Below the pieces are notes generated by a model, which saw only the letters and a program-made list of their open reading frames with translations, searched no databases and was not told where the DNA came from. The translations under genes and the position numbers were made by a program. 64,000 nt of DNA from a virus (taxonomy: Duplodnaviria; Heunggongvirae; Uroviricota; Caudoviricetes), in the IMG/VR virus record IMGVR_UViG_2718218131_000002; one strand, 5' to 3'. Shown here piece after piece: positions 2,322-7,722 of this stretch (positions are counted from its first letter, which is position 1; every line of letters starts with the position of its first letter).

Positions 2322-2609
2322 ATGATTGATCCACTTATTAGAAACTTACAGAGTGATATTGCACTACTCCAGCTTTATATCGCGCAACGCAAACAGGCAG
2401 GCTTTCATGACATGGAAAGAATAATTGAGTCATTGACCATCTTTATGTTTCGCGCGCTGAAAATGGGTGAACTGGTAAACATGAATCAGATTAAAGTTAA
2501 TTTTCCCGCCATTGATTTAGCTGATAATAAAAACATGATAGCAGTTCAAGTTACTACGAATGCAAGTCCAGCAAAAATTAAAAAACTATCGAATCTTTTG
2601 AGAAAATAA
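2322..2609 (+). CDS. SMEK-like N-terminal domain ORF, probable 5' part of a frameshifted gene
   Basis: AT-rich; motif NFPAIDLADNKNMIAVQVTTNASPAKIKK resembles SMEK-type N-terminal domains; the downstream ORF frame is open back into this one. Confidence 0.35.
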   Translation: MIDPLIRNLQSDIALLQLYIAQRKQAGFHDMERIIESLTIFMFRALKMGELVNMNQIKVNFPAIDLADNKNMIAVQVTTNASPAKIKKLSNLLRK

Positions 2610-2725
2610 ATGAAATAGGAGAGAGTCTGAAAGATAAATACTCTACTTTATATATTTTTGGTTTTTGTAAAGCCTCAAGATACCTAACTCCAAGTTATTG
2701 TAAAATAATCGACCCCAGCTATTTC

Positions 2726-3220
2726 GTGAATGAACTTTGCGATAAAGCAGATGAAGATATGGTCCAGGATATGATTGACGCCATTCGACGCCATCATGAT
2801 TATACATCATTACATCCATGGAGTGATAAAGATTCACTCGAAATTATACTCAATATTATTAATCGCAATGCAATAAAACATCGGATGAGTTGCGAAGGCA
2901 GTCTGTCTGATATGCTCACTGGTTTAAAAGAAATTAATGAAGTAATTACAAAAGGAACAATTCAACGTAAGCAACGTTCAAAATCGATATCTGACTTCAA
3001 AGATCAAAGCATGGTGAAATTTATGAGAGGTGTAATGGATGATTTGTCTGTTATTCAAGCCATAGTGAACAAATCTAAAGTTAACCAAGGTGATATGGTT
3101 TATATAAGCCATGAAGATATGATTAATATTGATAAATTAAAAGCTAAAATAGCAAGTGATTCATCAGAGATTGCAAGGCTAAATAATATTGATATAACAC
3201 TAAATGTTGTTGATTTATAA
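2726..3220 (+). CDS. hypothetical protein, probable 3' part of the same SMEK-like gene
   Basis: Frame has no stop back to at least 2582, overlapping the end of the previous ORF; listed start is GTG. Confidence 0.35.
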   Translation: MNELCDKADEDMVQDMIDAIRRHHDYTSLHPWSDKDSLEIILNIINRNAIKHRMSCEGSLSDMLTGLKEINEVITKGTIQRKQRSKSISDFKDQSMVKFMRGVMDDLSVIQAIVNKSKVNQGDMVYISHEDMINIDKLKAKIASDSSEIARLNNIDITLNVVDL

Positions 3221-3534
3221 TTGTCGATTTAGCAAAACAGAGAATGCTTTGAAAGTTTCACCGAGAAATATTTATTGTGAACCTCCTTATTGTTTATCGA
3301 CTTTTACTCTCCGCTCATTGCAGTACTGTCGGAGAAGGCTACTATGTACAAGAAGCAGCTAACATAAGCGAGCATCACTATTGATATTAGGAAGAGTATA
3401 TAAAAACTTCATGCTGAACCTTACAAAAGTAGGTAAACCGGCAATGGCCTAAGTGGCAGGGTCATGTTGATCCGGCACTGCCGAGCTAATAATTAACAAG
3501 CAAATCACTCTTTCTAATAATTTGTTGAAATAAA

Positions 3535-4194
3535 CTAAATATGTATATGTTTACCAACAACCACATATGAACTACCTGCTTTGCTCCATGATTTTATTAT
3601 TTCTAAATTATTATCTGAGCATATTTTACTTACAGTATCCACATCTAATAAACCATAGTAGAAAGCATTGCGAGAGTTTTGGTATATATACCCATGCAAA
3701 TGTTTAATACCGCTCTCGTACCTCTTGAAATAAGAACTTTTGTATTGATTGACAATCAGTGCTTCACCATCACTCTTTAATAATTCTCTAATCGCACTGA
3801 GGACTTTGTGAATTGTGGATTCACATGGAATTGCGGAAAGCACGTTTGCGCAAAGTATGAAATCATAATGATTTGTTATTTTATCTATATTTTCATAAGA
3901 AACAATATTAGCATTCTTATAGTTATTTATCACGTAATCTGGAATCGTGGTTTGTACACCTCTGATAATTTGCACTCTTTCTAGTTGTCTTCTGGAATCT
4001 AAAAATGTCACAGTTTCAAATTTATTTACTAATTGTTCTGAATATCTAAGTTTTCCACATCCAAAATCAAGGGCATTGCCATTTTTATTAGTGCTTTCAA
4101 TCTGTTTACAGAGATAGTTAGATGGCATAGTGTGCGGTTTCGCTGCATTTTCTGAACGTATGTTTATTCCATTTATTTTGTAATTCAAAATCAA
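3535..4194 (-). CDS. class I SAM-dependent methyltransferase
   Basis: Motif I LDFGCGKLRY and Rossmann-like order; AT-rich codon usage. Confidence 0.6.
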   Translation of the reverse strand: MILNYKINGINIRSENAAKPHTMPSNYLCKQIESTNKNGNALDFGCGKLRYSEQLVNKFETVTFLDSRRQLERVQIIRGVQTTIPDYVINNYKNANIVSYENIDKITNHYDFILCANVLSAIPCESTIHKVLSAIRELLKSDGEALIVNQYKSSYFKRYESGIKHLHGYIYQNSRNAFYYGLLDVDTVSKICSDNNLEIIKSWSKAGSSYVVVGKHIHI

Positions 4195-4200
4195 CCTCGT

Positions 4201-4908
4201 TTAAAAAATATTGTTATTGTTAAAGAATTCTTTTATTTTGCTATCAGGTATTTGTCTTACTTGGCTTTCTGTTCTTGGTTTAACTGATGCTATGAAAATA
4301 AGGAAGTCAAATGCGACAAGAGAAATAATCCACAACCAAAGATTAATTAAAGAGCCAGTAACAGAGAATATATTTGTTAATTTGGCGATACTTATTATTA
4401 AAATAGTAACAAATGCGATTACTGTATGTTCAAAGAAAACCCAAAAGTAATAAACTTTGTTCCAGAAAAGTTCAACGTAATGTTTGTCTTTTAACTCTTT
4501 AACTTCTGGGTAATACAGTTTACTCATTACCTTGTGAGATTCATCAGTAGTTAATTTTCTCGTAACGCCTGCAATTTTTGCTAATGGTTTAATAATTAAA
4601 TGACTATCCCACATCTTCCTTATTCCAATAATTTTTGCTACATTATTATGTAGATCTAAAGCTCCACTAATTACTGACCAAAAAACTGAAGATGCAATTG
4701 GTAATATGCCAAAGGTTAATATCCATTTAATAAATTCCTCGTAGTCTTTAACGGGGGGGATATACTTGGCATTAATGCCAACCAATGGCATGTAGCCATA
4801 AATGACTAATGATAGGTAAAATATAAATGTAGTAATAAAAGTCGCCTTATGGAGCATAGGCAACATTTCATTATAACTCTTTGGTGGTTCTAACATTTTA
4901 CTCTCCAA
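4201..4908 (-). CDS. polytopic membrane protein of unknown function
   Basis: 235 aa with several long hydrophobic segments; 6-nt gap to the methyltransferase downstream on the same strand. Confidence 0.5.
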   Translation of the reverse strand: MESKMLEPPKSYNEMLPMLHKATFITTFIFYLSLVIYGYMPLVGINAKYIPPVKDYEEFIKWILTFGILPIASSVFWSVISGALDLHNNVAKIIGIRKMWDSHLIIKPLAKIAGVTRKLTTDESHKVMSKLYYPEVKELKDKHYVELFWNKVYYFWVFFEHTVIAFVTILIISIAKLTNIFSVTGSLINLWLWIISLVAFDFLIFIASVKPRTESQVRQIPDSKIKEFFNNNNIF

Positions 4909-5638
4909 ACACTCAAAAAAAAGCTAATCTTCTATAATAACGAAATTCAGCTGGCACAATTAAAGATTAATTGCCACCAATTTCTTGATTTTATAATTTT
5001 ATCTAAATGTTTTTGATTAATCTAGTCCTAAAAGAAACCTACTGCATAAATATTTATGCTGATGACCCACTCCCTGTTCGTTAACACATAGCAACGTTAG
5101 TAATGCATCCTAAGTGATCAATATTTTTGCTAGCTTCATCTGCTCGCTCAAAGGGAACTATAATGTTGGCTTGCGTGTGACTTGGCATGTTTAAAGAAGT
5201 GCTGGTGGTGACTGGTTGCTGTTTTCCATTTCCACAGAACAAAATCATAGAAACTATACCCAGTAGTTGTATTGAATCACTGACGAGACAGCCTCATATT
5301 TATCAGGACTGGTGTACGTCCAATACAGGAGGTTGTGGTGCTGGTTCTCAAATGTGCGCTGGCTATTGCTGCTGTAATGGCAATTTATTGTCTTGCTGTT
5401 GTTCTTATGGATCACCTTTCTGATTGATTTCATATTGGCGAGGTAACGGTAGTTAAGTAGAATTGCTGCGGGTGCTTGAGGCTATCTGCCTCGGGCATCA
5501 ACACCAAAGGCAGATAGAGAAAAGCCCCAGTTAACATTACGCGTCCGGCAAGACGCTTAACATTAATCTGAGGCCATATCTATGCTCTACACACGTAGGT
5601 TAGCCTCTTACGTGCCGAAAGGCAAGGAGAAGCAGGCT

Positions 5639-5794
5639 ATGAAGCAGCAAAAGGCGATGTTAATCGCCCTGATCGTCATCTGTTTAACCGTCATAGTGAC
5701 GGCACTGGTAACGAGGAAAGACCTCTGCGAGGTACGAATCCGAACCGGCCAGACGGAGGTCGCTGTCTTCACAGCTTACGAACCTGAGGAGTAA
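5639..5794 (+). CDS. hok: Hok/Gef family type I toxin (HokD/RelF-like)
   Basis: MKQQKAMLIALIVICLTVIVTALVTRKDLCEVRIRTGQTEVAVFTAYEPEE is a near-exact Hok family match from memory; in-frame upstream extension from 5582 looks like a mok-like leader. Confidence 0.85.
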   Translation: MKQQKAMLIALIVICLTVIVTALVTRKDLCEVRIRTGQTEVAVFTAYEPEE

Positions 5795-5863
5795 GAGACC
5801 CGGCGGGGGAGTAATCTCCCGCCACCTCTGATGTGCCAGGCATCCTCAACGCACCCGCACTTA

Positions 5864-5886
5864 ACCCGCTTCGGCGGGTTTTTGCA
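5864..5886 (+). terminator. rho-independent terminator after hok
   Basis: CCCGCTTCGGCGGG hairpin followed by T-run. Confidence 0.55.
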
Positions 5887-5959
5887 TTAGTCTGGTTGAC
5901 AAAAATAGAAAAATGCGAAAATATGTGGTTTACGAATTCTAAAAAAAGCGAAACTTGAA

Positions 5960-6610
5960 ATGAATGAAAATCAGTTAGCTCCTTGTTGGGAATTTCAACC
6001 TTATCTTGCTGAAAACTATGTTCGCCACTTGTTGGCGGAGATCGCTAACGTACTTGAGCAGCTGTACTATCATAAGCACGCATTAGACAGCAACTGGTCT
6101 GAAGGTGTAAGGGCTTATGATTGGGTCAGAAATCATCTTATTCAAAATGAAGATGCAATTCCTGGCCTTGAGATGATTTCCAAGGGGTTGGACTATGTAG
6201 TTGCTTTAAATAAAGTTCCGCTACAATTTACCAAAGATTGCATTAATAACCCCAAAAAGAAACATCGTCTGCGTCGAAATAAAGTAGAGTATGAGCAACT
6301 CTCATTGTTTGGTGATGTTGAGGCTGAGCAAGATATTACATGGCGAGTCATAGCTGAGCCTTTTTTATCCGAAGAGGGCGATGGTGAATTAGAGTCCACA
6401 CTGCCTCGTTGGGAGGTAGCTCTTGTTGGATTTAATACTTATGGTGCTCAGATTAGTATAGTTTCTCATCAATCTACAGCATCGATGCCGCTTATGCCTC
6501 TTGATTATAACACACTCCCTGACGAAGCGGAGATTAATAAGGTGCCTCTTCGTCGGCGTACGAAGGATAAAGATTTGGATGTGAGCAGTGATGGAACATC
6601 AGGTGAATAA
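5960..6610 (+). CDS. hypothetical protein, candidate toxin/effector partner of the downstream XRE-peptidase
   Basis: 216 aa; 3' end overlaps the next gene by 23 nt; no motif recognised. Confidence 0.4.
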   Translation: MNENQLAPCWEFQPYLAENYVRHLLAEIANVLEQLYYHKHALDSNWSEGVRAYDWVRNHLIQNEDAIPGLEMISKGLDYVVALNKVPLQFTKDCINNPKKKHRLRRNKVEYEQLSLFGDVEAEQDITWRVIAEPFLSEEGDGELESTLPRWEVALVGFNTYGAQISIVSHQSTASMPLMPLDYNTLPDEAEINKVPLRRRTKDKDLDVSSDGTSGE

Positions 6611-7694
6611 CTTCACTGAGTATCGGGGTGATAAGCTCAAACTAGCGAGAATGGCTGTTGGGCTTTCTTGTGAAGAGTTAGCCGAAAAAATTGGCAAGAC
6701 AAAGCAATTCGTTAGCAAACTGGAGAAGGGGTGCAGGCCATCGGAGCAATGTCTTGAGTTAATATCTTCAGCGCTTATGATTAAGTCCAGTTTTCTTTTT
6801 ACTGAACGAAAATACGCTCTGGAAAGTGATGTCTGCCATTTTCGGAGTAAGAAGTCCAGGACTCAAACGCTGACTAATAGTGTATTGGCCAGGGCTGAGA
6901 TTCTTAATATTATAATTTCTGCTGTTGAAGGTGAAATCGAATTTCCTGACGTTAACATACCGGAGCACCCAGGGGCTGAATTACTTACTCCGAATGATAT
7001 TGAGCGAGTGGCAGAAGATTGTCGCCGTGCCTGGAATTTAGGTCTTGGCCCTATATCATCAATGGTTAAATTGGCGGAGAGTTTAGGGGTAATCGTTGCG
7101 CATGTTACGGGAGTCGATGATCGTGTTGATGCTTTTACTGTTCACAATAACAGGCCTGTTATCATCAGGAACAATGTTAAAAAAAGCATATGTAGATTTC
7201 GCTCTGATTTAGGTCATGAATTAGGGCATTTAGTAATGCATGAGGGCATAACGACAGGTGATAAACTTACGGAATCACAAGCCGATCACTTTTCGAGCGC
7301 CTTATTAGTTCCCAGGTTATCTTTCATTAAAGAATTTCCACGAATACGAGGTAAGCAATTCGACTGGAATGCTCTGGTTGAATTTAAACTTAGATGGAAA
7401 ATCAGCCTTAAAATGTGTATTTATCGAGCCAGCGCATTAGGCTTATTGACCCAGGAACAGGCAAGAACTGGCTATATGCATCTTAATTCCAGAGGGTATA
7501 CGAGAGTTGAACCTGGTGATGAACTTTTGCGCCCTGAAGAACCCGGTATGCTGGCCGAGGCGATTGAAATGCTGGATGATGCAACCTGGCTAAGAATTCT
7601 TATGAAAACTGGCTTGAGCCAAGATTTAATTCGTGAGTTGTTCTCCATCAACAGACCTATTACAAATCCAAGAAATATTTTCCAGATTGTTTGA
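6588..7694 (+). CDS. XRE-family HTH fused to ImmA/IrrE-type Zn metallopeptidase (COG2856-like)
   Basis: N-terminal HTH (LARMAVGLSCEELAEKIGKTKQFVSKLEKG) and HEXXH motif (HELGHLVMHE). Confidence 0.7.
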   Translation: MMEHQVNNFTEYRGDKLKLARMAVGLSCEELAEKIGKTKQFVSKLEKGCRPSEQCLELISSALMIKSSFLFTERKYALESDVCHFRSKKSRTQTLTNSVLARAEILNIIISAVEGEIEFPDVNIPEHPGAELLTPNDIERVAEDCRRAWNLGLGPISSMVKLAESLGVIVAHVTGVDDRVDAFTVHNNRPVIIRNNVKKSICRFRSDLGHELGHLVMHEGITTGDKLTESQADHFSSALLVPRLSFIKEFPRIRGKQFDWNALVEFKLRWKISLKMCIYRASALGLLTQEQARTGYMHLNSRGYTRVEPGDELLRPEEPGMLAEAIEMLDDATWLRILMKTGLSQDLIRELFSINRPITNPRNIFQIV

Positions 7695-7698
7695 GTAT

Positions 7699-7722
7699 AC
7701 CCGCTTCGGCGGGTTTTTTGTT
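7699..7722 (+). terminator. rho-independent terminator, same hairpin as at 5864
   Basis: CCCGCTTCGGCGGG followed by T-run. Confidence 0.55.

Follow-up and report, generated by a model that had tools for sequence, protein, structure and literature searches.

A predicted RosmerTA toxin-antitoxin moron beside hok in a lambdoid prophage, and a conserved candidate clamp-binding motif in its toxin

RosmerTA systems combine a zinc-peptidase antitoxin (RmrA) with a toxin of unknown function (RmrT), and a ΔrmrA mutant was not transformable, possibly through toxicity. An experimentally verified system comes from Escherichia coli OLC-716 (Millman et al. 2022), and RmrT has been described as a collection of diverse toxins paired with a protease antitoxin in variable gene order, with a phage-borne example validated (Ernits et al.). 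The RosmerTA modules of E. coli OLC-716 and of Gordonia phage Kita protect a naive host against phages, the toxin of Kita being membrane-depolarising. In Streptococcus pneumoniae, DnaN, the β sliding clamp, is an interaction partner of the Rosmer toxin RipA (Spr1630), suppressors of RipA toxicity cluster in the hydrophobic peptide-binding pocket of the clamp, and the antitoxin RipB (Spr1629) needs ClpX to work (PMC12795458, December 2025), a paper that names no motif in RipA. Here we analyse a cassette of two genes, rmrT and rmrA, in a 64,000-nucleotide stretch of DNA (the window) from the IMG/VR virus record IMGVR_UViG_2718218131_000002 (Caudoviricetes). The cassette lies next to hokD, within the nin region of a lambdoid prophage of the Qin/PPompW kind, and encodes a protein of 216 amino acids (aa) followed by a protein with an XRE helix-turn-helix (HTH) and a Zn-peptidase domain.

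Assignment of the pair to RosmerTA

Profile matches to both proteins indicate, with high confidence, that the pair is a RosmerTA toxin-antitoxin (TA) anti-phage module of an already catalogued type. The 216-aa protein matched the PADLOC RmrT model PDLC03929 (E 4.6e-25, aa 7-209 of 216), and the HTH-peptidase matched the PADLOC RmrA model PDLC03943 (E 6e-105) as well as 13 other RmrA models. In PHROGs, the toxin corresponded to phrog_5786 (unknown function; E 8e-85) and the antitoxin to phrog_2439. A sequence-only reading of this DNA had proposed a TA- or antiphage-type module with an HTH-Zn-peptidase antitoxin, and the PADLOC matches to RmrT and RmrA bear this out. By contrast, its suggestion that the 216-aa protein may be a new effector did not survive the hidden Markov model (HMM) searches that it had named as a check, which returned an existing RmrT model, of a family described in 2022, together with the PHROG match. 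A new effector class is ruled out, as PADLOC RmrT and PHROG 5786 cover the whole protein.

The antitoxin carries the parts expected of a Rosmer regulator. Pfam assigned both an HTH_3 domain and a Peptidase_M78/ImmA-IrrE domain to RmrA (Table 1), its HELGH zinc motif is intact, and HExxH together with a downstream E..A..F.SA.L.P is invariant in RmrA across eight relatives. RmrA shares 29% identity with its verified counterpart from E. coli OLC-716 (E 2e-35) and also matched the NCBIfam spr1629-family repressor/antitoxin model with an E value of 1.5e-45, a match that lies below the model cut-off (156 versus 335 bits).

By the sequence comparisons made here, the RmrT family of the cassette has no kinship to the E. 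coli RmrT that was verified by experiment: neither BLASTP nor profile-profile comparison (hhalign) found similarity between the toxin of the window and that of OLC-716, which falls outside PDLC03929, and homology between the two was rejected. RmrT is an acknowledged collection of diverse families, and the missing homology to the verified toxin is therefore compatible with membership. In addition, RmrT had no Pfam or NCBIfam match, and none of its family representatives carries a Pfam domain. The two systems nonetheless share their layout, in that both place the toxin gene first and co-oriented with the gene of an antitoxin of about 370 aa in which an XRE HTH precedes a Peptidase_M78 domain with HExxH, and both toxins are about 220-240 aa long, lack a Pfam domain and hold a clamp-motif-like Q-L-x-L-x-L/F in an acidic linker. 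The setting of the present pair is a lambdoid prophage nin region, in which respect it differs from that of OLC-716. We found no experimental study of this RmrT family in the literature, and the names CB9615, RM12579, NCCP15648, NCTC86 and O55 did not occur in the portion of the Millman supplement text that was searched.

The family itself is coherent. An exhaustive profile search gave 69 RmrT-family representatives at 50% identity, all of about 200-230 aa, and all 39 aligned relatives (39/39) matched the same PADLOC RmrT model. Pairing with an overlapping or adjacent M78 peptidase gene persists at 20-25% toxin identity, as in Photobacterium, where the pair adjoins integrases, and in a metagenome-assembled genome (MAG) labelled Alphaproteobacteria; pairs also occur in Enterobacter, Serratia and Xenorhabdus. 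Scanning viral contigs with an RmrA profile gave 77 loci. Among the 32 most divergent of them (36-74% RmrA identity), 31 have an upstream open reading frame (ORF) of the toxin family on the same strand (E 1e-28 to 1e-62), and the lone exception lies at a contig end. An orphan RmrT homologue, in which QMALAF is kept and no peptidase gene adjoins, was seen on metagenome contigs (L008 and L009; 4001-4663 of L008), where its neighbours are a DUF779 gene and a gene for a major facilitator superfamily (MFS) transporter.

ImmA, IrrE and CapP, all members of the M78 family, cleave XRE repressors, and RmrA also gave a weak match to PADLOC capP (E 1.6e-14), raising the possibility that the HTH-peptidase acts in the manner of ImmR/ImmA or CapH/CapP, as a switch for the prophage or for a gene beside it, with the 216-aa protein a co-transcribed passenger. 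We consider this highly improbable. The HTH and peptidase are fused in RmrA, which is encoded in the nin region, and no CBASS or other effector operon lies downstream, where only rem, ydfU, rusA and Q are found. Moreover, the 216-aa family accompanies RmrA in 31 of 32 divergent viral loci. The sequence-only reading had itself named a prophage repressor switch as its alternative, against which stand the separate dicA/dicC-type immunity region of this prophage and the absence of the cassette from otherwise near-identical phages. What RmrA has in common with ImmR/ImmA (ICEBs1), IrrE/DdrO and CapH/CapP is a COG2856/M78 metallopeptidase working with an XRE HTH, and these systems suggest a likely switching logic for RmrA, namely signal-dependent proteolysis that relieves repression. 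However, theirs are separate proteins controlling genes of their own element or a CBASS operon, whereas RmrA is a fusion with a dedicated toxin partner.

A candidate clamp-binding motif in RmrT

The only new point of this analysis is a conserved clamp-binding motif, as we read it from the sequences, in RmrT. RmrT was predicted to be soluble without a transmembrane segment (maximum Kyte-Doolittle value in a 19-residue window, 0.84), and a membrane toxin like that of phage Kita was rejected for lack of a hydrophobic segment. A moderately confident AlphaFold2 (AF2) model built on a 39-sequence alignment (predicted local distance difference test score, pLDDT, 73.6) places a pair of long helices at the N-terminus, with a three-stranded sheet, at aa 18-91 and a second three-stranded sheet at the C-terminus, with a basic/acidic, poorly predicted linker between them at about aa 96-125. 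The pentapeptide QLSLF sits in this low-confidence linker between the predicted N-terminal α/β domain and C-terminal β-sheet, where pLDDT falls to 54-60 (residues 101-120) between well-predicted flanking domains and a short helix is drawn at 108-115.

Motifs that bind the β clamp follow the consensus QL[S/D]LF, or more generally QxxLF; QLSLF binds E. coli DnaN at sub-micromolar strength, and QLSLPL is a tight hexapeptide variant (PMC12309361). The pentapeptide of RmrT equals this consensus and is the best-conserved element of the RmrT family. Q113 is conserved in 97% of members in one family alignment (A3) and in 80% in another (A2), with E110 conserved in 95% and L116 in 82%. Clamp-binding proteins are recognized by a pentapeptide QL[S/D]LF or a hexapeptide QLxLx[LF]. 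In the RmrT family, a clamp-motif pattern was found in the linker of 38/39 and 44/59 members, at a rate per residue 84-87 times that in the rest of the same proteins. The variants seen in the family comprise the pentapeptides QLSLF, QMTLF and QLELF and the hexapeptides QLALAL, QLSLAF, QLSLPL and also QLAFEF, an alternation of pentapeptide and hexapeptide forms that mirrors known clamp motifs.

A similar element recurs in the unrelated toxin family of OLC-716. There, Q[LMI]x[LFI]x[LF] (QLKLDL and variants) is conserved in 15 of 15 members of enterobacterial type, while seven members from Vibrio, Photobacterium and Shewanella show NLDLF or NYDMF in that position, and both forms sit in an acidic stretch. 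It is conceivable, though we stop somewhat short of even confidence, that at least two sequence-unrelated Rosmer toxin families carry a conserved canonical clamp motif. If so, many RosmerTA systems would be clamp-poison defences, which upon infection disable the replisome by means of a short linear motif and whose toxin is otherwise restrained by the Zn-peptidase antitoxin and ClpX/ClpXP.

The sequences establish the family of the pair, its mobility, the conserved pairing and the conserved motif. From these we infer a mechanism whose conjectural steps are that RmrT is toxic, that RmrA binds operators, what sets the system off and that DnaN is the target. The HTH of RmrA would bind repeated GGTTGAC-N13-GCGAAA sites and repress the operon, and RmrA, with its Zn-peptidase domain and probably ClpX/ClpXP as in other Rosmer systems, would keep RmrT inactive. 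Infection would then disturb RmrA control and free RmrT, whose putatively exposed QLSLF would enter the hydrophobic cleft of the β sliding clamp in competition with polymerases. As a result, DNA replication would stall, both in the cell and in phages using the host replisome, leading to growth arrest or abortive infection. For the clamp-binding step taken by itself, we see the case from sequence as evenly poised, and clamp poisoning is the mechanism of RmrT that the analysis suggests as most likely. The explanation as a whole, a RosmerTA moron at the hok terminator hairpin with RmrT acting as a clamp poison, is one that we hold to be moderately probable.

The pneumococcal RipAB pair offers the nearest Rosmer comparison for this proposal. 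Its antitoxin has the same architecture as RmrA, and the RipA suppressors map to the clamp pocket exactly where QLSLF would bind. However, RmrT is likened to RipA through the reported target of RipA, and RipAB is chromosomal and competence-linked, with no phage defence shown for it. Involvement of ClpX or ClpXP would also fit strains in which clpP or clpX turns essential, E. coli E101 and Pectobacteriaceae carrying Rosmer-type modules; in E101 the need for clpP stems from a prophage TA whose protein accessions differ from those of the cassette here. Another parallel is the type VI TA system SocAB of Caulobacter crescentus, whose toxin, as described in PMC12795458 and reportedly by Aakre et al. 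in 2013, occupies the hydrophobic cleft of the β clamp, blocks replication and is held in check through ClpXP. SocAB is the closest analogue for the proposed action of RmrT. By contrast, the two share no sequence relationship, SocA is a small ClpXP adaptor rather than an HTH-Zn-peptidase, and SocAB is not known to be carried by phages as a defence moron. We found no further paper linking Rosmer toxins to the clamp.

An alternative within RosmerTA is that RmrT kills enzymatically through its folded domains, for example if D43, E110 and E133 together with R129 made up a metal site like that of a nuclease or phosphatase. If so, the QLSLF-like motif could tether this activity to replication forks, or it could be a recognition or cleavage site for RmrA/ClpX. 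Foldseek with the RmrT model returned nothing at E < 0.1, and the structural matches were all in the twilight zone. Restriction-endonuclease-like PD-(D/E)xK nucleases have an α-β-β-β-α-β core bearing conserved D...(D/E)xK catalytic residues, and in RmrT the canonical residues are not conserved on the predicted β2 and β3 strands. In addition, the linker motif equals the clamp consensus exactly and varies as clamp motifs vary, which argues for clamp binding rather than for an enzymatic site. We therefore regard an enzymatic RmrT as unlikely, though as the most serious competitor to clamp poisoning.

Leader, terminator hairpins and insertion as a moron

The cassette is a self-contained moron in which rmrT and the overlapping rmrA stand between a putative promoter leader and a terminator that belong to the module itself (Table 1), and such a unit of promoter, gene or genes and terminator is typical of lambdoid morons in general. 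As the sequence-only reading had described, a 216-aa ORF is overlapped by an XRE-HTH/Zn-peptidase ORF, and its coordinates and the overlap of 20-23 nucleotides (nt) are confirmed. The range reflects two candidate starts of rmrA, an ATG at 6591 used by RefSeq in identical DNA (367 aa, 20-nt overlap with rmrT) and a GTG at 6588 (368 aa, 23-nt overlap). No obvious Shine-Dalgarno sequence precedes rmrT.

Table 1. Features of the rmrTA cassette and of the adjoining hok/sok module (window positions; nt unless marked aa)
Feature	Position	Strand	Basis or reading
sok	5470-5644		Rfam match, 114 bits
mok ORF	5582-5794		start upstream of hokD coding sequence
hokD, type I toxin of the adjoining hok/sok module	5639..5794	+	ORF list; RefSeq annotation of identical DNA, FORC 064
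Left hairpin (ACCCGCTTCGGCGGGTTTTTG), hok intrinsic terminator and left recombination joint	5864..5884	+	fold -15.1 kcal/mol, terminator-like call
Cassette leader	5893..5953	+	read as promoter plus candidate RmrA operators
rmrT, predicted 216-aa toxin of RosmerTA	5960..6610	+	PADLOC RmrT family PDLC03929; phrog_5786
Codons of QLSLF, RmrT aa 113-117	6296..6310	+	equals consensus β-sliding-clamp-binding motif
rmrA, 367-aa antitoxin/regulator	6591..7694	+	Pfam, PADLOC RmrA PDLC03943
RmrA XRE HTH (HTH_3), aa 16-62	6636-6776	+	Pfam
RmrA Peptidase_M78/ImmA-IrrE domain, aa 176-281	7116-7433	+	Pfam
RmrA zinc motif HELGH	7215-7229	+	intact
Right hairpin (ACCCGCTTCGGCGGGTTTTTTG), cassette terminator and right recombination joint	7699..7719	+	terminator-like call, fold

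The leader was defined by phylogenetic footprinting, in which copies including those of E. coli KL53, Enterobacter, Serratia and Xenorhabdus were compared. When the upstream DNA of six copies was aligned, conservation started abruptly at GGTTGACA (5894) and ran to the start codon, the sequence further upstream being unrelated. Within this stretch, a perfect -35 box TTGACA (5896-5901) is followed 17 nt on by a weak -10-like AAATAT (5919-5924). A consensus σ70 promoter scan did not call this promoter, the -10 matching at 3/6 positions only. Two direct repeats of 28 nt (5893-5920 and 5926-5953), set 33 nt or three helical turns apart and of the form GGTT(G/T)AC-N13-GCGAAA, span the leader from the -35 box to just before the rmrT start codon and are conserved as far as Xenorhabdus. 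We accordingly read the leader as a putative promoter and the repeats as candidate RmrA operators.

The identical terminator hairpins that had been reported to bracket the pair are present, an exact 20-nt repeat ACCCGCTTCGGCGGGTTTTT occurring at 5864-5883 and at 7699-7718 as a stem-loop CCCGCTTCGGCGGG with a T-run in both copies. The repeat had no third match in the window with 2 mismatches allowed (0 expected; 100 shuffles), and both copies fold stably (-15.1 and -10.9 kcal/mol) and were called terminator-like. The origin of this arrangement can be seen from the empty site. In PPompW-type phages (checked in PPompW_132418), hok (gef) is followed by one hairpin and then rem with nothing between, and both flanks of the window align to the PPompW phage such that they overlap precisely on the 21-nt hairpin, with the sequence past the right hairpin continuing exactly like the empty site. 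The insert is thus 5885-7698 plus one hairpin copy, a 1.8-kb module of about 41% GC against 50-55% in the flanking phage genes. In our reading, hairpins stand on both sides because recombination inserted the moron at the hok terminator hairpin. The earlier suggestion that the pair moved as a unit is likewise upheld by this single-hairpin empty site and by the occurrence of the same module elsewhere in other prophages.

The terminators of four cassette copies have the same CCCGC/GCGGG stem with different loops (TTCG, TACG, TATAT and TGCTA), and the cassette therefore brings its own terminator, whose likeness to the hok terminator probably gave the crossover point. A target-site duplication of the transposase type is unlikely, given that the 20-21-nt repeat is the hok terminator itself and that in other copies the stem is kept while the loop differs. 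Neither a transposase nor an integrase gene was found in or adjoining the cassette, the flanking genes being hok and rem. In E. coli UTME-9, the hok-rmrTA-rem region is identical except for an additional 1.1 kb and holds a protein annotated as 'integrase core domain', which suggests that an insertion sequence (IS) element inserted in or beside that cassette.

Distribution, nin-region neighbourhood and implications

The cassette was found in 237 of 5426 complete E. coli genomes, with 224 of 238 matching records at least 99% identical. The copy of E. coli KL53 is 80% identical and occupies another lambdoid nin region, one that lacks hok. Prophages of Enterobacter and Xenorhabdus have homologous pairs in their nin region, and Serratia prophages have them between Q and holin. 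In E. coli CFSAN004176 (L004, 4707-5809), a 94%-identical cassette has an intact rmrT and an rmrA that is frameshifted in an A7 run before HELGH. Either this split is a homopolymer sequencing error, or a truncated HTH-containing fragment suffices to silence the toxin.

The position next to hok was correctly recognized by the sequence-only reading, with hokD immediately upstream as a neighbour outside the cassette proper and sok recovered by Rfam as the sole match of that scan, nothing being found within the cassette. The same reading had compared the site with the K-12 Qin slot that holds hokD next to relBE. The nin region is indeed the same, and the gene neighbourhood hokD-rem-ydfU-Q harbors a TA module in both prophages; however, the Qin order is relB-relE-hokD-rem-ydfU-Q, with relBE, an unrelated mRNA-interferase TA, upstream of hokD, whereas the RosmerTA cassette is found on the downstream side of hokD, before rem. 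In a Xenorhabdus prophage (L014, 8449-10355), ParE/Phd and HicA/HicB modules share the nin-to-lysis stretch with rmrTA. Taken with the hok/sok of the present prophage and the relBE of Qin, these modules show that TA systems concentrate in the late nin region of lambdoid prophages.

Such company could mean that the cassette is chiefly an addiction module for prophage retention, with anti-phage defence absent or incidental. It adjoins hok/sok, a classic post-segregational killer, the region carries relBE, ParE/Phd and HicAB in other prophages, and strains with a Rosmer system cannot do without rmrA. By contrast, plasmid-style post-segregational killing gives an integrated prophage little, and the protection of naive hosts by the OLC-716 and Kita systems points to defence. 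The same direction is indicated by a distant rmrT-rmrA pair of about 25% toxin identity (L005/L006, 4001-5726; the Alphaproteobacteria-labelled MAG and a Dissulfurispiraceae metagenome contig), which directly follows hsdM-DUF1016-hsdS of a type I restriction-modification (R-M) operon, a classic defence-island context. We consequently think it quite improbable that addiction is the chief role of the cassette and retain RosmerTA as a defence module.

Upstream of hok, where Qin has relBE, the window contains a very AT-rich island (2322-4908, about 30-35% GC) that may be another accessory or conflict module. Its SMEK-domain gene, intact in FORC 064 (299 aa), is here frameshifted after about codon 88 in an A-run, and the opposite strand encodes a class I S-adenosylmethionine (SAM)-dependent methyltransferase (3535-4194) and a 235-aa hypothetical protein without family assignment (4201-4908).

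As a genome feature, the cassette is ordinary, being a catalogued module that rides as a moron in a common E. coli prophage and that a PADLOC run should label RosmerTA. It provides a clean case of moron insertion at a terminator hairpin for which the filled and the empty site are both available, and it shows TA and defence cargo concentrating in the hok-rem stretch of the nin region. If clamp poisoning by RmrT is true, it would extend the RipA-DnaN observation to phage-borne systems of Enterobacterales and name the exact residues. Confirmation would tie Rosmer systems mechanistically to SocB and RipA, and it would predict that the phages which escape are those bringing their own clamp or replisome. 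For a family with mostly unknown toxin mechanisms, the mutable five-residue motif represents a precise hypothesis that is cheap to test.

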